A DNA stretch of 64,000 nucleotides from Escherichia phage AV111: sequence record OR352941.1; one strand, 5' to 3'. The notes under the pieces are model-generated. The model did no database searches. It was not told the DNA's origin and saw nothing but the letters and a program-made list of their open reading frames with translations. How positions within the stretch are numbered: position 1 is the first letter of the stretch; each line of letters begins with the position of its first letter. Of the stretch, positions 6,986 through 31,338 are shown piece after piece. A program made the translations under genes and the position numbers.

Positions 6986-9697
6986 TCAAAAATCGAACAT
7001 ATCGAACAGAGATGCTTTCTTCTCATAATCGAGTTTCGCTGCTGATGTGAATCCTTCAAGTGGTTTAATAAATGTCTTCTCAAGGAGAACAGTGTAGTCC
7101 ATCCAATGAAGTACATCGTCTTTAATTAAATCTGTGATTTCAGTACCAGAAGGCCATGCGATACATTTATCACCGAATGGGTTTCCTTCACGTAAAGGCA
7201 GAACATATACTTTTTCACCTTCTACAACTTGCGGCGCATCAATATTACCTTTGATAGCTCGGTTATATGTCAGAATTCCACGAATATGGAACGGGCATTT
7301 GGGGCCAGGGAATCCACCGACATCATATTTAGCAATGTTATTCGCAGAAGATACCGACGCGATGCTAATATAATTCAATTGACGGAATTCTTTTTCAAAC
7401 TCTTTAAAATATTCTTGTAATGATTCTTCACCTTCTTGAAGCATACGACGAATACATTCTTTAAGAGCTTTCTGTACTGCTTTAGGGGTCGAAGATTTCT
7501 GAGTCTCTAGACCCATGATTTTGAGTTTAGGCTCAGCGTAACGAGTGCCTTCCATATCCCACACGTTTAATGCATAACGTTTCTTACCAGTCCAGAATCC
7601 ACCAATACCTTTAGAACCGAGCGGAGGGCCAGCAATAGCTTCTCGGTCCATGAACATCAAATGTTGCTTATTATTCATGTATTCACACATTTCACGGAAA
7701 CCTCTATCAATAGCTGGTTCCATACGTTCACGTGCAAACTTATCTAAGAAGTCTACCCAATGGTTGGTATCACGGAATTTAGATTCACCAACCTTATCAA
7801 TAATTTTATCTGCAGATACGTAAATGGAGTCTGTATCACCATATAGAACGAAAGCTTCGCCTTCTGTACCACAAACTTCATTCAGATATTCATTAACTTT
7901 ACGTTCAATCCACTGTAAAGCCATTTGCCCAAATGTTGTGATTGCAGTTGCATTACGCAAATCGTAATAACGGAACCAAACGTTTCCAAGTGCACCATAA
8001 AGTGAGTTGATAAGCAATTTACGGTTAATCTGTGCAGTCATACCTGCAACTTCAGTACGTTGAGCTCTAAACAACATTTCATTAAGAGATTTAGCAGACA
8101 ACTTTTTAATCTTTTCTTTAATCTCATCACTGAAGTCGAAACGATAATCAACATCTAATGGTTCGTCAACAGAAAGATTAGGATTATGCAATGCCTCTTT
8201 AATTATTTCGCCATTACGTTGAGCTGCAAGCATGTAACCTTTATGTTCTTTACGTTGATTAAAGACCTTAGTGATTTCAGTTGGAACTACACCATCACGG
8301 TCTTTATAATACATCATGCCGTTAGGAGAGCAACTGTACACATCTGAAGGACGTTCAGCGATTGCGTTAATATAATCATGCAGTGGAGCTACTTTAAACG
8401 TTCCTGCTATTGTTTCAGGGCTAATATTCACTTGGCGAATAATACTTGGATACAGAGATGTAAGGTCGAAACTCATTACATATTTGTATCGATTTGGAAT
8501 AGGTTCCTTAACAAAAGCGCCAGGATAAGGTTGAACCGGGTGAGAACGACCTTGTGGAATCACCTTGTTCTGCTCTTTAAGGCTATTAAAAATAATAGCA
8601 TCCCATGTTTTAATTGGACTGAACACAGATTGAATCTGAATTTTAGCATAATAACCCATGTCCAAGCTCAAGTTAATGAACTGGCGTTTAGCATCAATTT
8701 GCAATACACGATATACGTCGATAATGTTATAAGAAATATATCGTTGGTGATTGCTTTCACGAAGCTTAGAAATAGGGCCGTCATATTTCAGTTTACCAAC
8801 GTTCAATTCAAATTCTGAAATGTAATCCAGAGAATACGACGGTTGGTTCGTGAAAGAGAACTTTTTGTAAAGGTCAATGTAATCAAGAACAGAGATACCG
8901 AACAATGTAATGATTTCACGAGAACCATACATGTTTTCGATAACTTTAACACGAGTTTTACGATGTGGTGATAAACGTTTCGCAGTAGATTCGCCAAAAA
9001 TATTCTTGATTCGGTTATACACATATGGAATATCAAATGACTCAACGTTCCATCCAGTCAAAATGACAGGAGTTTTCTGTTGCCAGAAGTTGAGATATTC
9101 CATCAACAATTCTTTTTCGTTATCGAACGGCATATAAATGATTTTATCGATAATTTCGGATGGAACTTCATCACCGCCTTGTTCTTGAAGCTTAGCAGCG
9201 ATTTCAATAGACCATTCTTCTACATTACCATATGGAGAATTCAATAGATCAAATACGTAGAACCTGTCGTCAATTGAGTCATAATGGGTGATAGCATCAA
9301 TCGGATGTTTTGCTTGTGACGGCTCAGGGAACCCATCCGGAGATGTTACTTCGATGTCGAAGTTAGCCACACGAATTTTTGTATGGTCGTATTTGATTTC
9401 ATAGTTATAAGTGTCAGACAAATACGCCAATTTGAAATCGTCCATGCCAAGTGCTTCAAGTCCGATATCTTCCATGCGTTTAATCCATTGAGACGCATCG
9501 CGCATATTAGCGAACAACTTACGAGTACACGGCTTACCGTAGATATCGAAATATTTCGTAGCCTGACTTTCTGGACAATGAGCAAACAGTGATGGTTTAT
9601 ATTCTACTTCACGAGTACGTTCACGGCCATTAGAATCGATGTAACGTTCAAAAATTGAATCACCAATCTGTTCAACCGTTAAGTAAAATTCTTTCAT
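6986..9697 (-). CDS. 43: DNA polymerase gp43 (family B, with 3'-5' exonuclease)
   Basis: 903 aa; N-terminus MKEFYLTVEQIGDSIFERYIDSNGRERTREVEY and motifs DIEVT, YGDTDS match RB69/T4 gp43. Confidence 0.97.
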   Translation of the reverse strand: MKEFYLTVEQIGDSIFERYIDSNGRERTREVEYKPSLFAHCPESQATKYFDIYGKPCTRKLFANMRDASQWIKRMEDIGLEALGMDDFKLAYLSDTYNYEIKYDHTKIRVANFDIEVTSPDGFPEPSQAKHPIDAITHYDSIDDRFYVFDLLNSPYGNVEEWSIEIAAKLQEQGGDEVPSEIIDKIIYMPFDNEKELLMEYLNFWQQKTPVILTGWNVESFDIPYVYNRIKNIFGESTAKRLSPHRKTRVKVIENMYGSREIITLFGISVLDYIDLYKKFSFTNQPSYSLDYISEFELNVGKLKYDGPISKLRESNHQRYISYNIIDVYRVLQIDAKRQFINLSLDMGYYAKIQIQSVFSPIKTWDAIIFNSLKEQNKVIPQGRSHPVQPYPGAFVKEPIPNRYKYVMSFDLTSLYPSIIRQVNISPETIAGTFKVAPLHDYINAIAERPSDVYSCSPNGMMYYKDRDGVVPTEITKVFNQRKEHKGYMLAAQRNGEIIKEALHNPNLSVDEPLDVDYRFDFSDEIKEKIKKLSAKSLNEMLFRAQRTEVAGMTAQINRKLLINSLYGALGNVWFRYYDLRNATAITTFGQMALQWIERKVNEYLNEVCGTEGEAFVLYGDTDSIYVSADKIIDKVGESKFRDTNHWVDFLDKFARERMEPAIDRGFREMCEYMNNKQHLMFMDREAIAGPPLGSKGIGGFWTGKKRYALNVWDMEGTRYAEPKLKIMGLETQKSSTPKAVQKALKECIRRMLQEGEESLQEYFKEFEKEFRQLNYISIASVSSANNIAKYDVGGFPGPKCPFHIRGILTYNRAIKGNIDAPQVVEGEKVYVLPLREGNPFGDKCIAWPSGTEITDLIKDDVLHWMDYTVLLEKTFIKPLEGFTSAAKLDYEKKASLFDMFDF

Positions 9698-10714: not shown

Positions 10715-11677
10715 TTATTTCCAAGTCAGTTCGCAGGTCAGTTGAAGAAGCATATACATAACATGTAATTCAATATTACTTGCTAATCCATGAAATTTAT
10801 TATTTTCGCCTGCGATTTCATAAAGCGAAATAATACTTTTACCAGGTGCAACTTGGTCATAACATTCTGAAACTAATTTATCGATGAACCATGAATAATC
10901 TGCGGCATATTTTGGAGCTAATGCACGAAGCTGTTTGATATCTTTGTTCTTCATTGCTTCGATAACATCATCTACCGTGCCACGATCATTGGTTACAATC
11001 GACAAAATACCTGCATCAAGAACACCTTTAGACGAGTACCTGTCTAATTGACCAATTGTACGTCGAAAGTCCGGGAAGTTCTTTTTAACCAGAGCTGCAA
11101 CAACTTTCATATCAGCGATTTCGATATTTTCGTTCTTACAGATTTCAACCATGCGATGAATCATTTTCTTCATCATTGAGATTTTATCTTCTTCGGTTGG
11201 ACGTCCGAATTCGATAACTCGACAACGACTACGTAATGGTTCAATAATTCCATCGATGTTGTTGGCAGTAATAATAATAGAACAGTTACTAGAGAATTCT
11301 TCCATGAATGTACGAAGGTGACGTTGTGATTCAGCGAGGCCACTACGGTCAAATTCATCGATAACAATAACTTTAGGCTTGCCTTCCATTGAGACTGAAC
11401 GAGCAAATGCAGTTAACGGACCGCGTACAAAATCAATTTTACAATCAGAACCGTTGACGAACATCATTTCAGCGTTGATATCGTTACATAGTGCTTTTGC
11501 CACGGTTGTTTTACCGGTACCAGGAGATGGAGAGTGTAAAATAATATGAGGAAGTTTTCCTTTAGATACTAAAGACTTGAATGTTTCATGGTCATACGCA
11601 GGCAGAATACATTCGTCAATGGAAGAAGGACGATATTTCTGTTCTAGAATGTGCTCTTTGGAATTGATAGTAATCAT
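10715..11677 (-). CDS. 44: clamp loader ATPase gp44 (AAA+)
   Basis: 320 aa; Walker [11 protein letters not shown], Walker B VIVIDEFD; T4 gp44-like. Confidence 0.92.
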
Positions 11678-11752: not shown

Positions 11753-12439
11753 TTAGAAGTCGTGAGTAGAATCGGCTTCCATTGCAATAACATAACTTAC
11801 TTGAGAGCTTTCAAACTTGGCTGCAACTTTATCACCAGCTCCCCACAACATTACTTTATAGTTACCTGGCTGGATTTTCATATTAGCCATATTGATTACG
11901 AAGTTAAAGTTGTTAGAACCATCATAATCGGTAAGAGTCAAAGAATACTTAGGACGAGTTAGTCCGGAATCTTCAACTTTATTATAGCCATTGATAACAA
12001 TTTTACCATCTTTATTTGTAATAGCAATTATATCAATCTGAAGACCACGTGAAACTCGAAGCAATTGTTGAAGGTCTTCAGCTTTAATTTCAGTAATCAC
12101 AGAAGCCACTGGGAATTGAATTGGCTTATTAGGAAAAACAATGGTGCTCTTGTCAGCGGCAGGCCAATAAACTGTGGAACGTGTATCTGCAATTTTAATA
12201 TTGCCATCGGTGTGCATTGAAATTTCAGCATCATCGGACACTAGACTCAAAATGCTTAAGAAGCTATTCAAATCATAAAGTGCTACGTCAAAATCAATTT
12301 CATCAGAGATATTTGCTTCCGCATAAGTGGTGCCATTAACTGCACGAGTCATAATAAATTTACCTTGACTAAGCAGAATGCCAGAGTTAATAGAAGCGAA
12401 GTTTTTCAGAATATTTACGGTTTCACGGCTAAGTTTCAT
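11753..12439 (-). CDS. 45: sliding clamp gp45
   Basis: 228 aa, T4 gp45 length and position. Confidence 0.9.
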   Translation of the reverse strand: MKLSRETVNILKNFASINSGILLSQGKFIMTRAVNGTTYAEANISDEIDFDVALYDLNSFLSILSLVSDDAEISMHTDGNIKIADTRSTVYWPAADKSTIVFPNKPIQFPVASVITEIKAEDLQQLLRVSRGLQIDIIAITNKDGKIVINGYNKVEDSGLTRPKYSLTLTDYDGSNNFNFVINMANMKIQPGNYKVMLWGAGDKVAAKFESSQVSYVIAMEADSTHDF

Positions 12440-12711
12440 TTAGGTTTCCTATTAGCATAATAATTTGTCCAAGACCGGATAGCACCTTGGTATGATTCAT
12501 CATTAAAACCATGCTGAATTGCATGTTTTCTAAATGTAATATAACTTGGTTTTCCTAAAGCAATCCACAATTCCTTTAATTTTTGTTCATGAAATATCCA
12601 TGTACCTCTAGCTTTAGATTTTCTGAATTTATCCTTAAATTCTTTGGTTGCATTTCTTTTCGAAGCTGCGATAGAGGCCTTTGCTCTATTTTCAGGTTTA
12701 GACCAATACAA
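12436..12711 (-). CDS. possible displaced C-terminal DNA-binding segment of the adjacent homing endonuclease (NUMOD3-like WSKPENRAKASIAASKRN plus HTH-like tail), in a different frame
   Basis: 91-aa ORF overlapping the last ~45 codons of 12576..13334 in another frame; AT-rich homopolymer runs near 12712-12740. Confidence 0.4.
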   Translation of the reverse strand: MYWSKPENRAKASIAASKRNATKEFKDKFRKSKARGTWIFHEQKLKELWIALGKPSYITFRKHAIQHGFNDESYQGAIRSWTNYYANRKPK

Positions 12712-13334
12712 TGTTTTAGATATTTTATTTTATCTTTAACATTAGGAGAATTCATTATATCTTTAAATTTTAAAGCAAAATCTCTATCGCTAAACATTTT
12801 TTTAGAACGAATAGAAACTTTCTCTCTTCGTTCTTTGGTCCAATATGTTTTTTGAAATTCTCTAATTGCGTTTAAATGATTCTCCGACAATTTGCAATTT
12901 TTTCTAACACCGACGTAATCTTCATTTATTTCGTTTTTAGAAAGTTTTACTATTTTGCCTGTTTTTAAATTTTTATACGGTGCATATCCTTTAGCTGATA
13001 TTCTAGACTTCTCGTTAGCATAAGCCTTATTAAAATATTTTTCATTTGAAACGGCTTTAACATTGAGTTGGAATAGTCTTTCTATTCTTCTAGGGTCTAA
13101 TGTGGTTTCGCCTAAAATTTTTACAGAATATTCGCCTTGGTCTATTAATCTGTTATATAAAGGAGAATACGAGGAATTAACACTACCGGTATATATTTTA
13201 CCGGTAGAATCTTCAATAATATCCTTTCCATTAAAATGACACGAAACTTTAGAACCTATATAATAACACGGGTATTCATTTTTAATCTCACGATTATAAA
13301 AGGTTATAAGATATATTAAATTCATAATTATCAA
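12576..13334 (-). CDS. GIY-YIG homing endonuclease-like protein (Seg-like), possibly frameshifted near its 3' end
   Basis: N-terminus NLIYLITFYNREIKNEYPCYYIGSK (GIY...YIG spacing) and NUMOD3-like YWTKERREKVSIRSKK; inserted between 45 and rpbA-like gene. Confidence 0.7.
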   Translation of the reverse strand: MIIMNLIYLITFYNREIKNEYPCYYIGSKVSCHFNGKDIIEDSTGKIYTGSVNSSYSPLYNRLIDQGEYSVKILGETTLDPRRIERLFQLNVKAVSNEKYFNKAYANEKSRISAKGYAPYKNLKTGKIVKLSKNEINEDYVGVRKNCKLSENHLNAIREFQKTYWTKERREKVSIRSKKMFSDRDFALKFKDIMNSPNVKDKIKYLKHCIGLNLKIEQRPLSQLRKEMQPKNLRINSENLKLEVHGYFMNKN

Positions 13335-13747
13335 GCAGCAACCATCTGCTTTTTAATAGCTTCAGGCAGTGATTCAATATATTCTGGAATTTTAGAAGCA
13401 ACAATTTCGCCAGCTGCAATTAGTTGTTCGTCGGCATCAACACAGTAAAAATCTTCAAGGCGTTCAGAACCGTCTTTATCAAGAACGATTTTAGCACCTG
13501 CTTCGATAGAATCTTTATAGTGCTTACGCATCAAATGAATCCACATATCAGACACATCGTTATCAATAAAACCATAAATCATAAAACGAGTTTCTTGTGG
13601 CAAAGATTGGAGTTTTTTAGCACTTGCGTCATCACAATGCAGGACCCATGCTTTACGAACACGATTATGGTTATGCGGGTTAGCGTCAGTACGGATAGAA
13701 GTAACTTTCAGATCAGCAGCGGTAAAACCTTTAGCAGTAGTAAACAT
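13331..13747 (-). CDS. rpbA: RpbA-like protein (positional assignment)
   Basis: 138 aa ORF between 45 and 46 where T4 has rpbA; no sequence verification possible. Confidence 0.45.
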   Translation of the reverse strand: MFTTAKGFTAADLKVTSIRTDANPHNHNRVRKAWVLHCDDASAKKLQSLPQETRFMIYGFIDNDVSDMWIHLMRKHYKDSIEAGAKIVLDKDGSERLEDFYCVDADEQLIAAGEIVASKIPEYIESLPEAIKKQMVAA

Positions 13748-13759
13748 ATTATTTCTCTC

Positions 13760-13960
13760 TTATTCGTAGAAGTCGGTAACTGTCCATGCGGAATTGCGAT
13801 TAGACATTATTTTATTATACTCATCTTTAAAAGCAGATTTGAGCATTTGTTCAGTGACAATATGTTCTTCACCTGAAAACGTATTGGTCAAAACATATTT
13901 TTTAATTTCAGGGACAACGAGAAGATGTTGTCCAGTTGAATACTCCATGTTGTTCTCCAT
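13760..13960 (-). CDS. hypothetical protein, 66 aa
   Basis: ORF track; between rpbA-like gene and 46. Confidence 0.4.
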   Translation of the reverse strand: MENNMEYSTGQHLLVVPEIKKYVLTNTFSGEEHIVTEQMLKSAFKDEYNKIMSNRNSAWTVTDFYE

Positions 13961-14002: not shown

Positions 14003-15691
14003 TTATGAAACAGTCATTACAGTAAATCGTCCAACTTTGCTCATTTGCAAATGTTGTCCATAACGTTGAGGGTCATGGTCCCTATGAGAAATAATGAACA
14101 CGTTAGTATTTTGTAAACTTCCAAGAATGGTATCTATAGCCTTAACAGCTTCAGAATCAACTGCCCCATCAAAAACCTCATCAAGAATCAGAGTGTTGAT
14201 TTTAACACCAGAGACCTTTTCAGCAATATCTCGCCATGTAAACAACAACGCGATATCAATGCGTGCTTTTTCACCTTGACTAAATGAAGCATAACTAAAA
14301 TCTTCACGACCACGTGATTTTATAGATTCATTGAATTCTTCATCAATAGAAAACACGTAATCAGCTTCCATAATTTTAAGATAATGGTTAATCTGCTTGT
14401 TGAACAGAGGCACATATTTTTTAATGATAGCACCTTTAATACCAGAATCTTTTAACATATCTGTGATAATACCACGATGGTATTTTTCAAGAACGATATC
14501 CGATTTTGTTTTAATGATTTTATCAAGTTCTTTTTGAAGCAAAGCTATCTCATCGGCATGGTCGATAAATTCTGCTGAGGCTTGCTCTATTGCAGCTTTA
14601 ACTTTCTTAGCTTTATCAATAGTGGCAATCATTGCTTGTTTCTTGGTACGAATATCGGATGCAAGGTCCTGCTTAGTCTTAACATTAGCTCTATATTCGT
14701 CCACTAGGACACTCAGATTATCTCTGTGACAGGTAAGTTGCTCGAATGAGTGATTACATTCATGAAGCTTATCGGTAATCTTAGAGACAATAGGGTCACC
14801 CTGGTGCAATTGTGATGCACAAGTAGGACATGTGCCACCGTCATGATACATCTTAATAACTTTGTTATATGAGTCGATTTTAGATTTAATCAAGAATGCT
14901 TCTTGTCCTATCTTGTTGAATGCCTCAGTAGGGTCTTCATCAAGAACGATATTAAGTAGTCGCTCATTAGCTTCTTCGATTTCTGCTTTTAATGAACGAG
15001 CTTCTTTGGCTAGGTCGTCATACATATTCTGTAGACGCGCTACATTATCACCAGATAATTTCTTTTGACGTTCGATATTCTCGTTATAAATCTTAATTTG
15101 TTGGATAACACCATCTTTCTTGGCATCAAGAACTTGTCCCTGAGAATTAAGTTCGCGAACTTGAGACTTATTGATTTTATCCATTTCAGCGAGTGTGCCG
15201 ACTTCTAAAAGGTCTTCGACAAGTTTTCTACGAGCAGGGGTGCTAAGAGCCATGAAAGGGGTATACCCTGCCGTCCCAAGCACAACGATCTGTTTAAAAG
15301 ACGCGTATGACATTCCGATGCTACGTTCAAATTCTTCTTGGAAGTCACGACTGCTGGCAGATTCATCAAGACGAACACCGTCAACGGAGATTTCGAAAAT
15401 ATTGGGCTTTTGGCCTCGTTTAATGAAGTATTTTTTATCATCGAATTCCATCCAAAGCTCAACTAAGAGCTCTTTCTTGTTCGTGCTATTAATGATTTGT
15501 CCTTTCTTAACATCACGAAATGGTTTACCGAAAAGTCCGAAAGTAATGGCTTCTAACATCGTAGATTTACCACCGCCATTTTTACCGGTGATTAAGGTCT
15601 TTTGGACTTTATCTAATTGGATATCGATAGGATTCCCACCTACCGACATGATGTTTTGATAACGAACACGATTTAATTTAAATGATTTCAT
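14003..15691 (-). CDS. 46: recombination endonuclease subunit gp46 (Rad50/SbcC-like ATPase)
   Basis: 562 aa; Walker A GKNGGGKST, coiled-coil middle, zinc hook CPTC, C-terminal LILDEVFDG. Confidence 0.93.
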   Translation of the reverse strand: MKSFKLNRVRYQNIMSVGGNPIDIQLDKVQKTLITGKNGGGKSTMLEAITFGLFGKPFRDVKKGQIINSTNKKELLVELWMEFDDKKYFIKRGQKPNIFEISVDGVRLDESASSRDFQEEFERSIGMSYASFKQIVVLGTAGYTPFMALSTPARRKLVEDLLEVGTLAEMDKINKSQVRELNSQGQVLDAKKDGVIQQIKIYNENIERQKKLSGDNVARLQNMYDDLAKEARSLKAEIEEANERLLNIVLDEDPTEAFNKIGQEAFLIKSKIDSYNKVIKMYHDGGTCPTCASQLHQGDPIVSKITDKLHECNHSFEQLTCHRDNLSVLVDEYRANVKTKQDLASDIRTKKQAMIATIDKAKKVKAAIEQASAEFIDHADEIALLQKELDKIIKTKSDIVLEKYHRGIITDMLKDSGIKGAIIKKYVPLFNKQINHYLKIMEADYVFSIDEEFNESIKSRGREDFSYASFSQGEKARIDIALLFTWRDIAEKVSGVKINTLILDEVFDGAVDSEAVKAIDTILGSLQNTNVFIISHRDHDPQRYGQHLQMSKVGRFTVMTVS

Positions 15692-22165: not shown

Positions 22166-22636
22166 TTAATCATGTTTCCACACCCCATCGGTATTTGACC
22201 AAAGTCGCTGATTATCTGATCCTCGCCACAGCTTTTTAGTCGGAAGATTTTTCTCATACTTCCCATCAATAATAACATCAACATATTTAAGCATTTCTAG
22301 TTGTTTAATATCTTCAAACTTATATCCTGTCCACAACCAAATGCTTTTATTGGGATAAAGATTTTTTACTGTTTGAACAATGCAATGAATAACATCTCGA
22401 TTATCAGGATAGAGAGGGTCTCCTCCGGTTATAGTCAATCCTTCTATATAATCGTTATTCAAACATTCAATTAATTGTTCTAGTGTTTCACCAGTGAATG
22501 GAATACCATTTCTAGCATTCCATGTTGATTTATTATAGCACCCTTCACATTTATGCAAACAACCTGTAACGAAAAGAACGACCCTGCATCCAGGGCCATT
22601 CACAAAATCGCAAGGATAAAATCTATCATAATTCAT
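22166..22636 (-). CDS. nrdG: anaerobic ribonucleotide reductase activating protein (radical SAM)
   Basis: 156 aa; CDFVNGPGCRVVLFVTGCLHKCEGCYN. Confidence 0.92.
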   Translation of the reverse strand: MNYDRFYPCDFVNGPGCRVVLFVTGCLHKCEGCYNKSTWNARNGIPFTGETLEQLIECLNNDYIEGLTITGGDPLYPDNRDVIHCIVQTVKNLYPNKSIWLWTGYKFEDIKQLEMLKYVDVIIDGKYEKNLPTKKLWRGSDNQRLWSNTDGVWKHD

Positions 22637-24450
22637 TGGTGTTTAACCCTATGCATGATTTCTTTATTTTTGCCGAGATTAAATCCGCGTTCGTTCGGGT
22701 TTCCCAAATAACCGCATGTTCTTCTTATGGTGTTCATCTTTTTAGGATCAGTTTCTCCGCAAACTGAACAAACAAATCCGTTTTCAGTAGGAGTCATTTC
22801 ATGGGTACTTCCACATGTAAAACATTTATCTACTGGCATATTAACACCAAAATAATCTAAATGTTGTGCAGCATAATCCCACACGGCCTCAAGTCCTTTT
22901 AAGTTATTTTTCATATCAGGAAGTTCAACATAAGAAATGTGACCACCTGTCGCAATGAAATGATATGGCGCTTCACGAGAAATCTTTTCAAACGGAGTAA
23001 TATTTTCTTCTACTGAAACGTGGAAACTGTTAGTGTACCAGCCTTTATCGGTAACATCTTTTACACTTCCATATTTTTCTGTATCGAGTTTACAGAAGCG
23101 ATAACAAAGGTTTTCAGCAGGAGTAGAATACAAACTAAAAGCAAAACCAGTTCTTTCAGTCCACTGCTTAAGATGAGCATTCATTTTAGTTAAAATTTCT
23201 TGCCCAATATCACGGCCGACAAGAATATTCAATTCGTGAATACCAATGTATCCTAAAGACACTGAACTTCTACCGTTTTTAAATAACTCAATTATGTCGT
23301 CATCAGGTTTAAGACGAACCCCGAATGCACCTTCTTGGTAAAGAATAGGAGCTACAGTTGCTTTAACTCCTTTTAAGGAACTAATTCTACACATCAAAGC
23401 TTCAAAACACAGGTCCATTCGTTCGTTAAATAGCTCAACAAATTTCTGTTCATTGAACTGTGTTCCAATATAAGAATCTAACGCAATACGAGGAAGATTC
23501 AGTGTTACAACACCAAGATTATTACGTCCATCAAGAATTTCATTACCAGTCGAATCTTTCCATACGCTCAAGAAACTACGGCAACCCATTGGAGAAACTG
23601 GAACTGAAGAACCGGTAATAGCTTTATTATTCTTAACCGAAATAATGTCAGGATACATTCTTTTGCTTGCACATTCTAACGCAAGTTGTTTAATATCATA
23701 GTTTGGATCATCTTTATAAAGATTAACACCTTCTTCAACAAACATAACAAGTTTAGGAAAAATAGGAGTTATTCCATCACGACCAAGACCTTTAATGCGG
23801 TTTTTAAGAATTGCCTTCTGAATCATTCGTTCAGTCCAATCGGTTCCCGTACCAAATGTAATTGTTACAAAAGGAGTTTGTCCGTTTGAACTAAAGAGAG
23901 TGTTTACTTCATATTCATAAGCTTGGAATGCATCGTATACGTCTTTTTCTGTTTTAGATTGAGCATAATTCAACGCGTCAGCGATTTGCCATTTTTCTGC
24001 ATCTTCAACATGTTTAGCGTATGTACGTTTAACATAAGGAGAAAGAACTTTATCGACATTCGCAAAAGTCGTTCCGCCGTATTGGTGTGAAGCAACTTGT
24101 GCAGTAATTTGTGCCATAATTGCAGTAGCAACACCAATCGATTTAGGCGTTTCAATTTGAGCATTGCCTAATTTAAATCCGTTCTCAAGCATCCCTTTTA
24201 AATCTACTAAACAACAATTAGTAAAAGGCAATGATATACTGTAATCTAAATCATGAAAATGAATTAACCCGGCATTATGAGCATTTACAATATGGCTTGG
24301 AAGAATACTGCAAGCGATATGTTTAGAAACAATACCGGCCATTAAATCTCTTTTTGTTGGAAAGACACGAGAATCTTTGTTGGCGTTTTCGGTATTTAAT
24401 TCTTTATCTTTATTTGAAATAAAATTTAAAACATCTTTCTCTAAAGACAT
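22633..24450 (-). CDS. nrdD: anaerobic ribonucleotide reductase large subunit (glycyl radical enzyme), uninterrupted (no intron)
   Basis: 605 aa continuous ORF; C-terminal CFTCGSTHE...CSVCG zinc site and RRTCGYLG glycyl-radical motif. Confidence 0.95.
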   Translation of the reverse strand: MSLEKDVLNFISNKDKELNTENANKDSRVFPTKRDLMAGIVSKHIACSILPSHIVNAHNAGLIHFHDLDYSISLPFTNCCLVDLKGMLENGFKLGNAQIETPKSIGVATAIMAQITAQVASHQYGGTTFANVDKVLSPYVKRTYAKHVEDAEKWQIADALNYAQSKTEKDVYDAFQAYEYEVNTLFSSNGQTPFVTITFGTGTDWTERMIQKAILKNRIKGLGRDGITPIFPKLVMFVEEGVNLYKDDPNYDIKQLALECASKRMYPDIISVKNNKAITGSSVPVSPMGCRSFLSVWKDSTGNEILDGRNNLGVVTLNLPRIALDSYIGTQFNEQKFVELFNERMDLCFEALMCRISSLKGVKATVAPILYQEGAFGVRLKPDDDIIELFKNGRSSVSLGYIGIHELNILVGRDIGQEILTKMNAHLKQWTERTGFAFSLYSTPAENLCYRFCKLDTEKYGSVKDVTDKGWYTNSFHVSVEENITPFEKISREAPYHFIATGGHISYVELPDMKNNLKGLEAVWDYAAQHLDYFGVNMPVDKCFTCGSTHEMTPTENGFVCSVCGETDPKKMNTIRRTCGYLGNPNERGFNLGKNKEIMHRVKHQ

Positions 24451-25262
24451 AATTCTAATTTATCCTTTTGAAATTCTTCGTCTAAATATGGGTTCCAACC
24501 CATTTTAAACCTTTTGATGAAATTATCAATTCTAAATTTCGGTAAGTTTAAATCCGCAAAAATAGATGATTTACTTTTAAAATCTGGACCTAAATAATCA
24601 TATAAAATTTCTGCGTATTTTAACCATAATATATAAGTACCAGATTTAATTGCTCTCGGAGTTTTCCAAGGTTTTACACCATACATCGGATTTCCACTTC
24701 CTTTATGCCTGATAGAAGATGAAATTCCAATTTTAATTTTAGCTTCCTCTGTATGCGAAAATCCATGATGTGGATTTTCTTTCCAGTATTTTTTAGAAGC
24801 TTCTGATATTTTCTTTCTGGCTAAATTAGTATGATGCTTTCCATAAAATCCATGATTTTTACCTTTATTACGATTTCTTTTAATCATGGTTATTGATTGC
24901 TTTTTTCTAGTTTCTTTAGAAGGAGAAACACCATACGTTGTAAATTGACCATTAGCATATGCTAAATTAAAATACTCTTTATTCCATATATCTTTTTCTA
25001 TATTCTTTTGAAATTCAGCTTCAATGCTAGTTATTTGCTCATCTCCGACTAATTGAAAATATAATATTTCAACTTTCGGCGTTTCTTTCAACAGGGCTTT
25101 TTGAAATTCGGAAGATGACGAAGACGAATAATAAAATTTACCATTTTTATCAATAATATTCGTTCCGTCAAAAGTGCAATTAGTTTTACTTCCAATGTAA
25201 TAATATGGCGGGGTTTTAGCATTAATTCTATTAATAAATGATAGTTTATATACTACATTCAT
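24441..25262 (-). CDS. GIY-YIG homing endonuclease-like protein (Seg-like), free-standing between 49 and nrdD
   Basis: N-terminus VVYKLSFINRINAKTPPYYYIGSK; NUMOD3-like ISEASKKYWKENPHHGFSHTEEAKIKIG; overlaps nrdD start by 10 nt and 49 stop by 4 nt. Confidence 0.75.
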   Translation of the reverse strand: MNVVYKLSFINRINAKTPPYYYIGSKTNCTFDGTNIIDKNGKFYYSSSSSSEFQKALLKETPKVEILYFQLVGDEQITSIEAEFQKNIEKDIWNKEYFNLAYANGQFTTYGVSPSKETRKKQSITMIKRNRNKGKNHGFYGKHHTNLARKKISEASKKYWKENPHHGFSHTEEAKIKIGISSSIRHKGSGNPMYGVKPWKTPRAIKSGTYILWLKYAEILYDYLGPDFKSKSSIFADLNLPKFRIDNFIKRFKMGWNPYLDEEFQKDKLELCL

Positions 25263-25732
25263 TTTAAACTCTTTCTAAGCTGCTTTTTGAATGAAGCTAT
25301 TAATTGTGTTTTAGTATCAGATTCATTATATTCAAATCCTCTTTGAAGCATCTCAGCCATCATTTCCTCTTTGCCTAGTCTTGAGAACTCTTTAGTTTTG
25401 TCTGGAACAAAATTAGGATGGATATTATTATCAGAATAATCTTGTTTCAAATAAGCAAGAAGAGCTTCAAGCCATTCGAGGTAGTCAACATCACGTCCTT
25501 TAAGACCGGAACGATTGAACTTATGCTTCATTTGGCCTTCTGCTGCGTTGCACAGAGAACAGAGTAACCCACGAACTCTACCGGCTTTTGGCCCGTTTAA
25601 TTCGTGGTCGTGGTCAAGATGGTTACCTTGAACATCAGGGTCTAATTCACGGTGGCAAATAGGACACTTACCATTCTGTGCATCATAAAATTTTTGTTTT
25701 TCTTCTTTGTATAATTTGCCAGATAATAACAT
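25259..25732 (-). CDS. 49: endonuclease VII (Holliday junction resolvase) gp49
   Basis: 157 aa; CPICHRELDPDVQGNHLDHDHELNGPKAGRVRGLLCSLCNAAEG matches T4 gp49. Confidence 0.93.
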   Translation of the reverse strand: MLLSGKLYKEEKQKFYDAQNGKCPICHRELDPDVQGNHLDHDHELNGPKAGRVRGLLCSLCNAAEGQMKHKFNRSGLKGRDVDYLEWLEALLAYLKQDYSDNNIHPNFVPDKTKEFSRLGKEEMMAEMLQRGFEYNESDTKTQLIASFKKQLRKSLK

Positions 25733-29330: not shown

Positions 29331-30287
29331 TTATGATTTTAATGCATTCATTGCGTTAAAAAGTTTAGAATACTGCAACTGGAGATTCGTTACAACACTT
29401 TGAGCATCACGAAGCTTAGCTTGTGCTTTGTCAAGTTCAACGGACAGTTGGTCTACAGTAGCCTTGATTTGGTTGTAATAATAATCTTCGGCCGGAAGAA
29501 GGTCATTAGAAACATTTAGTTTTACTGCCGACAGTTTGCACACATTTGGCAAACCTTTAAACATATCGGGTTGTGCCGGAGAATATGCGCTTAGAACCTC
29601 TGCATTACCGACTGGTGTTGCTGTGATATTGCCTTCGAACGTTGCATTTTCCTTTTTAAGATTTTGATAGTATTCAGAGTCTTTGTGCCACCATGGCGCA
29701 GGAACCTTTTTACCAATAGATACACGAGCCTGGATAGCGATATGGCCCTTATTCTTGATAATGTCGATAATATTAAGCTCACGAGAATAAATCGCTTTAA
29801 TCTGGTGGATATTATCACCTAAAACTTCCAACGCTTGGTGGAATACACGAGCAACGTTATCATTCTTAGGTTTATACGTAAGAGTGAACTCATTCTCACT
29901 GATAACCATGATTTCCAACTTATCGTAAGTATATTTCAAATGTTTCATGTTAATTGCTTGAGGACGAATACGAGAAGCAATGGCCATCAAATTGTTAAGG
30001 TTATTTCTGAACTGTTTAGCAAAATATTGTCCGGTGCCGCCGATACAAAAATTACGAAGTTTCTGTTTGGCTAATAAACGGCTGAACTCACCATTTTTAA
30101 TGAACTCTTTAACGGGTGTGTTGGTAACGCATTCAAATTGAGTAAACTTACGAGAAGTAATCCCATAATATGAACAGATTTCCTCAATCTCTTCAGGAGT
30201 CTTTACAGGCATACGGATAGGATTAGGTCCTGGAGTATATGCGTTCGAGGTAAATTCTTTAATAAGTTCTCTACGTGTAATAGCCAT
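29331..30287 (-). CDS. hypothetical protein with C-terminal coiled coil, 318 aa
   Basis: ORF track; own early promoter upstream. Confidence 0.55.
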   Translation of the reverse strand: MAITRRELIKEFTSNAYTPGPNPIRMPVKTPEEIEEICSYYGITSRKFTQFECVTNTPVKEFIKNGEFSRLLAKQKLRNFCIGGTGQYFAKQFRNNLNNLMAIASRIRPQAINMKHLKYTYDKLEIMVISENEFTLTYKPKNDNVARVFHQALEVLGDNIHQIKAIYSRELNIIDIIKNKGHIAIQARVSIGKKVPAPWWHKDSEYYQNLKKENATFEGNITATPVGNAEVLSAYSPAQPDMFKGLPNVCKLSAVKLNVSNDLLPAEDYYYNQIKATVDQLSVELDKAQAKLRDAQSVVTNLQLQYSKLFNAMNALKS

Positions 30288-30313
30288 TTTATATTCCTCA
30301 TGTTGAAAAATTT

Positions 30314-30343
30314 ATTATACTCCAACCATCCTTGGTTGTACAT
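30314..30343 (-). promoter_or_regulatory. early sigma70-like promoter (-35 TGTACA, -10 TATAAT)
   Basis: Duplicate of the 29297..29326 element (ttattatactccaaccatccttggttgta). Confidence 0.55.
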
Positions 30344-31338
30344 CATTCCTTAAGAAGTTTTACTACCTGAATAAGATTAGCTCGTTCTGTTTTATTTTTA
30401 CCGTTTAAGCCTGCTAATCGTGAGATTTCATCGTCAGTCTGCTGAATAGTTACATTAAGTTCGTTAATCAAAGCTTCAAAGTATTTGATTTGCTCAGCAT
30501 GTTTTGATTCAAATTTCTGAACCGGAATAACGTCTTGGTTTAGTTCATCAATAAGGTCTTTAAGAGCATCTTCTTGGTTGATATCATATTCAACTTCTTT
30601 TATTTCTTCAACGAGCTCGTCTTTATATCTAACGTCTTTTAGTCCTGGTGCGGGTCCCGAAATCTCTTCTTTAAGAGTACAAACATATCCAATACGATAT
30701 CCAATGCCATCTCGCTTGATATCAACTTCGTCGATAAATCCACAATGTTTAAGTCCAGAGCCGATTATGTCAAAATATCCTTGACGTCGCCCTTCAAACG
30801 TTACACGAACTACTAAGACGGTTTTACCTGCAACCTTTTGAAGCTCACATTTATAAAAGTCAGTTGAACCTGAATAACGTGGATGAGTTTTAAAGTTCAT
30901 CTGACGATCTAGGCCCATTTGTAAACGTGCTGATACAGCCAGAAAACGTGTTTGGTTCTCGTTAAGATGAGCAACAATCTGTTTCAAAGGCATTTTACCC
31001 TGTTCACGACCGAACAAATCGGTACGTCCTAAATTACGCAGGATATTGTTAGAGTTAATCATCGACAGAACGTTAAGTTTATTCAGCGCGCTGAAGATTC
31101 CATCAGCCATTGATTTTCCATAACCTTTACACGCTTTAATAAGTGCTCGCGGCAGATTAGTATAAATTTCAGACGGCATATGAAAATCAAATTTTCTAAC
31201 CAATAATTGATGAACTTGGATAGCAATTTGCTCATAATTAAGTGCTCTGCGATCGTTATGGTCTTTAAACCACACTTTAATCTGTGAAGCACATAAACCG
31301 TTAATTTCATGTTTTACCGCATCAGATGTAATGCTCAT
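30343..31338 (-). CDS. hypothetical protein with C-terminal coiled coil, 331 aa
   Basis: ORF track. Confidence 0.55.
   Translation of the reverse strand: MSITSDAVKHEINGLCASQIKVWFKDHNDRRALNYEQIAIQVHQLLVRKFDFHMPSEIYTNLPRALIKACKGYGKSMADGIFSALNKLNVLSMINSNNILRNLGRTDLFGREQGKMPLKQIVAHLNENQTRFLAVSARLQMGLDRQMNFKTHPRYSGSTDFYKCELQKVAGKTVLVVRVTFEGRRQGYFDIIGSGLKHCGFIDEVDIKRDGIGYRIGYVCTLKEEISGPAPGLKDVRYKDELVEEIKEVEYDINQEDALKDLIDELNQDVIPVQKFESKHAEQIKYFEALINELNVTIQQTDDEISRLAGLNGKNKTERANLIQVVKLLKE

Follow-up and report, generated by a model that had tools for sequence, protein, structure and literature searches.

Between rpbA and gene 45, two replication/transcription genes of which the latter encodes the sliding clamp, the genome of Escherichia phage AV111 carries two overlapping open reading frames (ORFs), and it may be asked whether these are two separate genes, one gene read through a programmed shift of frame, an artefact of sequencing, or the remains of a single homing-endonuclease gene. 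The window, i.e., the whole analysed stretch of 64,000 nucleotides (OR352941.1), comes from a Mosigvirus (Tevenvirinae, T4-like); by megablast its identity to the nearest records is ~97–98%, and no record matches it exactly. In our opinion, the locus very probably contains one Seg-type GIY-YIG homing-endonuclease gene, inactivated by the loss of one base from a run of five adenines (A5 to A4). The features on which this reading is based are collected in Table 1.

Table 1. Features of the rpbA/45 region in the window, with the evidence for each where it was given
Feature	Position	Strand	Evidence
Gene 44	10715-11677	-	
Gene 45, sliding clamp, 228 aa, intact; downstream neighbour	11753-12439	-	
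Diverged patch, nt 9-26 of gene 45	12414-12431	-	Mismatch clustering versus NBG1
Whole disrupted homing-endonuclease gene, 890 nt (intact allele 891 nt, 296 aa)	12436-13325	-	Alignment to intact copies; two-frame tblastn
Downstream ORF, 91 aa	12436-12711	-	
Stranded C-terminal coding part, residues 201-296: last NUMOD3-like helices and three-helix putative DNA-binding domain	12439-12726	-	tblastn, PHROG, family conservation
AGGAAA, Shine-Dalgarno-like, for gene 45; within the endonuclease 3' end, 5 nt upstream of the 45 ATG	12445-12450	-	Sequence; function inferred
Three-helix putative DNA-binding domain, residues 241-290	about 12457-12606	-	
Out-of-frame tail: 48 missense codons (YLKHCIGLNL...MNKN) and stop at 12576-12578	12576-12722	-	Translation
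Upstream ORF, 252 aa from a mechanical TTG at 13334	12576-13334	-	
Native-frame N-terminal part, residues 1-201: nuclease domain, small beta region, first NUMOD3-like helices	12723-13325	-	
Frameshift site: A4 in the window, A5 in intact alleles (GATAAAATAAAAATATC); 1-nt deletion	12723-12726	-	Alignment
A7 run, intact in the window; mutation hot spot in sisters (A6 in G2285, A11 in AV115)	12797-12803	-	Alignment
A6 run, intact in the window; A7 in JM17 and FL18	12848-12853	-	Alignment
SegG-like GIY-YIG nuclease domain, about residues 1-105	13011-13325	-	
rpbA, 138 aa; upstream neighbour; stop 5 nt before the endonuclease ATG	13331-13747	-	
45.2 homologue	13760-13960	-	
Gene 46	14003-15691	-	

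The gene order on the minus strand of the window is 44, 45, the two overlapping ORFs, rpbA, 45.2 and 46. The 890-nt insert between rpbA and 45 is absent from most relatives and was found in only 9 of the 197 phage records that match the 1.2-kb region; in the others, rpbA is adjacent to 45. Empty sites have an rpbA–45 spacer of ~42 nt, e.g., in NBG1 and JK42, and the site is also empty in T4, where the spacer is 55 nt. The insert is consequently seen as a free-standing gene that some close relatives have and others lack, with conserved genes on either side. Its TGA stop (12438–12436) overlaps the ATG of gene 45 (ATGA). Scans of the region for T4 late promoters (TATAAATA), sigma-70 promoters and terminators gave nothing exceeding chance.

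The first-pass annotation, made from the sequence of the window, had described ORFs of 252 and 91 aa between 45 and rpbA, and both the flanking genes and the ORFs are as it stated, the latter sharing 136 nt (45 codons) that each reads in its own frame. Translation of the upstream ORF probably begins at the ATG at 13325–13323 (MNLIY...), chosen by all GenBank annotators of sister phages, and the TTG at 13334 is unlikely; from this ATG, the N-terminal ORF has 249 codons. An alignment with nine carrier phages, giving ten near-identical copies in total, showed that the window differs in length from the intact 891-nt ORF by exactly one missing A at 12723–12726, which falls among the A/T runs of 12712–12740, near which an indel had been suspected. 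When the intact protein was compared with the window by tblastn, residues 1–201 were found at 13325–12723 in frame −3 with 98.5% identity, and residues 201–296 at 12726–12439 in frame −2 with 100% identity; the two parts stand in separate frames because one A has been lost from A5. Inspection of the sequence for a start serving the stranded last 95 codons revealed no credible one, only a TTG lacking an upstream Shine-Dalgarno-like sequence. An exact look-up of the 249-aa truncated product in public assemblies gave no match.

Intact copies of this gene are available for comparison. AV116, FL31, AV109, AV114 and AV118 contain it as a single ORF of 891 nt (296 aa), and the same intact ORF in the same context occurs on three metagenome contigs from different samples. 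The proposal that one ancestral endonuclease gene was broken by a single indel is, therefore, borne out by these eight sequences, which all have one ORF. The remaining copies, from three further sister lineages, are broken in other ways, by frameshifts in A-runs close by: A7 has become A6 in G2285 and A11 in AV115, and A6 has become A7 in JM17 and FL18, frameshifting both. Across the ten copies, 6 substitutions (4 of them non-synonymous) stand against 4 independent indels, and every indel is located in an A-run (A5, A6 and, twice, A7), so that the broken copies involve three different runs and changes of −1, −1, +1 and +4. At the same loci, the flanking ~1.3 kb of essential genes has no indels in the ten-copy alignment. 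The window and G2285 have a common haplotype, yet their lesions differ. The coding strand of the gene contains 41% A, with ten A-runs of at least five bases. A-runs are classic frameshift hot spots in T4 replication, known from Streisinger slippage and the rII hot spots.

More distant relatives lead to the same picture. Full-length homologues of 292–296 aa, with 63, 60 and 49% identity, span both halves of the broken gene and are encoded at the same rpbA/45 site by Gaprivervirus VR26, by many Tequatroviruses (e.g., SHBML-50-1 and GiZh) and by a T4-like metagenomic phage that is more distant; their start abuts rpbA and their stop overlaps the gene 45 ATG. Together with the Mosigvirus of the window, the site is occupied in four T4-like lineages. 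It had been noted beforehand that intact homologues ending with the 252-aa ORF would speak against a single gene, and the opposite was seen, as these proteins run through both halves. In the family alignment, the best-conserved segment of the protein is just the part matching the 91-aa ORF. Values of dN/dS between genera (Nei–Gojobori) were ~0.19–0.25 overall and 0.19–0.24 for the C-terminal third, which, because dS is near saturation, is only a rough sign of purifying selection. Judging from these sequences, the single-frame 296-aa form is the functional, conserved state. A reading of the 91-aa ORF as a gene in its own right, of the 45.1/45.2 type, was rejected: the ORF corresponds to the conserved endonuclease C-terminus, and a 45.2 homologue exists elsewhere, upstream of rpbA (Table 1).

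The nature of the protein was established by family-based rather than single-sequence comparisons. Neither the two ORFs nor the intact protein matched any Pfam model, even at E up to 10, and the curated GIY-YIG models PF01541 and PF19835 likewise failed to match the window protein; PF19835 (SegE_GIY-YIG) was reached by only 4 of 67 relatives, with a best E of 3e-4. Searches of PDB sequences with the single protein or a 5-sequence profile found nothing. In PHROGs, the N-terminal half belongs to phrog_7504 and the 91-aa ORF to phrog_655 (E 1e-7), both labelled homing endonuclease. An exhaustive profile search yielded 228 relatives. In the 67-member alignment, Y5, Y22, G24, K26, Y45, S51, E82 and N99 are invariant. 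The GIY and YIG motifs are present as L3-I4-Y5 and Y21-Y22-I23-G24, located on strands 2–8 and 21–26 of the structural model, and the first-pass claim of a GIY-YIG motif agrees with the invariance of Y5, Y22 and G24. From their order and spacing, E82 and N99 would be equivalent to the catalytic E75 and N90 of I-TevI. The canonical arginine after YIG (R27 in I-TevI) has no clear equivalent in this alignment, and K26 is the invariant basic residue.

An AlphaFold model calculated from the 67-sequence alignment (pLDDT 89; a 4-sequence run with pLDDT 58 was unused) contains an alpha/beta domain at residues 1–105, a small beta region at 114–139, six helices at 148–236 and a three-helix bundle at 241–290. 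Its first domain has the GIY-YIG alpha/beta fold, with a beta-hairpin insertion after the YIG motif, and the catalytic domain of I-TevI is the structure that it matches best. The NUMOD3-like motifs reported earlier are confirmed in part. The window protein itself has no match to Pfam NUMOD3 (PF07460), but 51 of the 67 relatives carry this domain and the family profile matches the NUMOD3 helix of the I-TevI DNA-binding domain (PDB 1i3j, E 1e-3), and for these reasons residues ~148–236 are regarded as a homologous but degenerate NUMOD3 region. The suggested helix-turn-helix tail is supported by the three confidently modelled helices at 241–290 and by likeness to the C-termini of SegA and SegF; the Seg and I-Tev proteins of T4 used for comparison were extracted from NC_000866. 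On these grounds, the protein is predicted to be a free-standing Seg-type GIY-YIG homing endonuclease with a SegG-type nuclease and a SegA/SegF-type tail. A search of the literature found neither a paper on an endonuclease at the rpbA/45 site nor a biochemical test of that family.

The disruption could have arisen in the database rather than in the phage. If AV111 truly has A5 and an intact gene, the consensus sequence would have dropped one homopolymer base, and this is the commonest type of consensus error; moreover, the phage collection contains no identical record, and the exact truncated protein is not matched elsewhere. A5 is, however, short for such an artefact, and the window has many other A/T runs of at least five bases, yet none of the 129 ORFs compared with JK42 is frame-split in it. 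The few isolated homopolymer differences from JK42 are apparently intergenic or in divergent stretches. In sister phages from three other studies, this gene carries frameshifts unlike that of the window, and at least one of these comes from Illumina data: the AV phages, including AV115 with its A7 to A11 change, were sequenced by Illumina MiSeq 2x250 (PMC10844046). Real frameshifts are therefore common in this gene, and, since no other window gene is split relative to JK42, a real mutation is favoured over an error, which we consider unlikely. The first-pass annotation had left decay and sequencing error side by side; the evidence leans to the former: the selfish gene is best read as decaying through a genuine slippage mutation, and sequencing error is less likely.

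Other explanations accept the lesion and assign a function to it. At the A-run, a −1 shift of the ribosome or slippage during transcription could yield a low level of full-length toxic nuclease. Lysyl-tRNA slips on A-runs, e.g., in dnaX, the site is A-rich (ATA AAA T), and the A11 run of AV115 is long enough for transcriptional slippage. The low expression usual for homing endonucleases (PMC2988022) would also agree with such recoding. Against it, the frame is single and open in five sisters, three metagenome contigs and all more distant homologues, the broken copies differ both in the run affected and in the sign of the change, and the window site is only A4, lacks a heptamer of the canonical X XXY YYZ form, and has no stimulatory structure that was seen nearby. 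Neither a two-frame arrangement nor a slippery site is conserved across the homologues. A programmed frameshift, already ranked low in the first-pass annotation, is thus unsupported, as a single frame is conserved and the break sites vary, and we regard it as extremely improbable. Hardly more credible is a two-piece endonuclease whose nuclease and DNA-binding fragments are made separately and act in trans. Both halves are indeed open and jointly leave just four residues of the intact protein uncovered, but the C-terminal frame opens only at the TTG mentioned above, the split points vary between phages, the 48 missense residues overlap the second ORF, and in every other lineage the protein is a single chain. 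It is also conceivable, although quite improbable, that the A-runs are a reversible on/off switch resembling a contingency locus, or a substrate for transcriptional slippage, by which a costly or toxic endonuclease is silenced and later regained; the four independent A-run indels in ten copies would then be snapshots of switching, an interpretation to which we give the same low credence.

The comparison of carriers with empty-site phages also bears on the target of the intact enzyme. Against NBG1, a Mosigvirus with an empty site, gene 45 of the window has 28 mismatches, and 13 of them are concentrated in nt 9–26, with ~1.2 expected per 30 nt, and the encoded start changes from MKLSKDTIA in the empty-site phage to MKLSRETVN in the window. 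This patch is common to all Mosigvirus carriers. The clustering recurs independently within Tequatrovirus, where the comparison of T4 (empty) with SHBML-50-1 (carrier) places 13 of 22 gene 45 mismatches in nt 7–33 and 9 of 11 rpbA mismatches in the last 55 nt, so a diverged, possibly co-converted flank stands beside the insertion in carriers of both genera. T4 and NBG1, both with an empty site, do not differ in the first 22 nt of gene 45, and related variant patches, e.g., AGCCGTGAAAC and AGTCGTGAAAC, occur in carriers of four lineages. Such clustering of mismatches and such related patches would be expected of an enzyme that recognises or cuts gene 45 at its start in empty-site genomes, and of an element that carries a resistant flank. 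The patch is probably a target site resistant to cleavage, a co-conversion tract, or both.

If SegF and SegG are taken as models, the intact enzyme would, in mixed infection, cut genomes that lack the endonuclease gene, probably within or close to the initial ~30 nt of gene 45, and repair off the carrier genome would copy the gene into the cut one. Translation of the window allele would give residues 1–201 followed by 48 missense residues. The break falls within the helix 194–209, with the loss of two linker helices and the entire C-terminal domain. As the nuclease domain is thereby severed from the DNA-binding domain, the product should be unable to home. In I-TevI, nearly all of the binding affinity comes from the DNA-binding domain, and for this reason the window product should not be a site-specific endonuclease. 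The truncated protein keeps a complete nuclease domain and may have residual or non-specific activity.

The lesion is of the type expected of replication slippage in A-runs. It may persist because the carrier gains nothing from the enzyme without meeting empty-site phages. Promoter-less Seg cassettes have been described as embedding signals for downstream essential genes (PMC2988022), and the DNA of the dead gene may similarly be retained because the putative ribosome-binding region of gene 45 (AGGAAA) lies inside it.

Several consequences follow for the interpretation of T4-like genomes. Two "hypothetical proteins" in several GenBank records would represent one frameshifted homing-endonuclease pseudogene. 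The family, recognisably Seg-type in its sequence but previously uncharacterised, would be a group of Seg-type endonucleases with a fixed rpbA/45 home in at least four T4-like lineages, for which the diverged patch gives a concrete prediction of the target site at the start of gene 45. The ten near-identical copies with four independent A-run frameshifts provide a natural example of homing-endonuclease decay, with a slippage spectrum of the T4 type. As a whole, it is a case of ordinary selfish-gene decay in a T4-like phage, and current understanding is unchanged by it.

Among known systems, T4 SegG, a free-standing GIY-YIG homing endonuclease situated between genes 32 and 59 (Liu et al. 2003, cited in PMC2988022 and PMC10448857), is the closest in its nuclease. 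The N-terminal domains are homologous (BLASTP, 38% identity over 138 aa) and have the common pattern MN(I/L)(V/I)Y...PxYYIGSK...FNK; in a 10-protein target set, SegG was matched by the family HMMs with E 1.7e-19 (4 sequences) and 8.4e-41 (67 sequences). The genes are also alike as free-standing cassettes beside an essential replication gene which embed signals for the gene downstream, and in both a presence/absence polymorphism is accompanied by a diverged flank suggesting co-conversion. Unlike segG, the gene in the window is frameshifted and lies at rpbA/45, and therefore presumably has a different target; its intact product is 296 aa long, while SegG has 210 aa. Past residue ~140, the window protein has no relationship to SegG and is similar instead to SegA and SegF in their NUMOD3 and C-terminal tails.

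Particularly, residues 248–279 match SegA 176–207 with 44% identity, and residues 185–261 match SegF 112–193. The plan of a nuclease, a NUMOD3-like linker and a C-terminal DNA-binding domain is common to these proteins, but the nuclease domain of the window protein belongs to another Seg subgroup, the SegA/B/C/D/E type aligning only weakly to the family profile. In comparison with I-TevI (PDB 1ln0 for the catalytic and 1i3j for the DNA-binding domain), which is intron-encoded, the window protein is free-standing, has an identity of ~20%, and shows neither a zinc finger nor the R27 equivalent discussed above.

As regards the breakage itself, ICP1 gp115–gp116, T4 mobA and I-TevIII offer parallels in which ORFs for the nuclease and the DNA-binding part stand side by side through a frameshift, and which are variably present and unstable among near-identical isolates (PMC10448857; T4 annotation). 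For ICP1, it was described as typical that a frameshift separates the nuclease half of a homing-endonuclease gene from its DNA-binding half (PMC10448857). The nuclease families of these systems are HNH or T5orf172, whereas the gene in the window belongs to the GIY-YIG group.

Homologues of the frameshifted GIY-YIG endonuclease gene lying between rpbA and gene 45 were found in phages of other genera. In the Gaprivervirus VR26, the apparent start of the homologue is a GTG codon abutting rpbA, and the gene is annotated from an internal ATG, which leaves it 85 codons short. The homologue in the Tequatrovirus Shigella phage ESh24 (ON528734.1; match H74) was matched in two pieces and is therefore probably another frameshifted copy.

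Coordinates of the features considered here (L011 and L013, the loci of VR26 and of Shigella phage JK42)
Feature	Position (strand)	Remark
T-runs	3994-4032	
Gene 43	6986-9697	intact, 903 aa
Inverted repeat	13183-13207 (-)	within rpbA/45 endonuclease gene
End of rpbA	13323-13345 (-)	
nrdD	22633-24450	flank of second SegG-like gene
Second SegG-like GIY-YIG homing-endonuclease gene	24441-25262 (-)	intact, 273 aa
Gene 49 (endonuclease VII)	25259-25732	other flank
VR26 homologue	KP007362.1; L011 1201-2088	
JK42 tandem duplication	MK962756.1 ~29740-30427; L013 7035-7722	

A perfect 9-bp inverted repeat, CTACCGGTAAAATATATACCGGTAG, is internal to the rpbA/45 endonuclease gene and codes for the conserved GKIYTGS segment of the protein. 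It was picked up by a terminator scan, is not followed by a T-tract and may be due to chance.

The comparison with JK42 revealed a perfect tandem duplication in the record of that phage, consisting of two 300-nt copies spaced by 388 bp at the 3' end of the DNA polymerase gene. This duplication may have arisen in assembly; gene 43 of the window contains a single copy of the stretch. The two genomes also differ in the lengths of two T-runs (T8 in the window versus T7 in JK42, and T10 versus T5). Going by the JK42 annotation, both runs seem to fall within a spacer between genes and to represent non-coding homopolymer length variation.

At the end of rpbA, the sequence GTTGCTGCTTGATAATTATG includes TGCTTGA, which is similar to the T4 MotA box (TGCTTtA) and has TAATAT about 12 nt after it. 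In T4, where the site is empty, the rpbA-45 spacer contains TTGCTTTA...TATAAA. The insert may retain a putative middle promoter for gene 45 at its 5' edge.

The product of the second SegG-like gene, whose JK42 counterpart is annotated as 'SegG homing endonuclease', shares 30% identity with the rpbA/45 endonuclease and 40% identity over 128 aa with SegG of T4.
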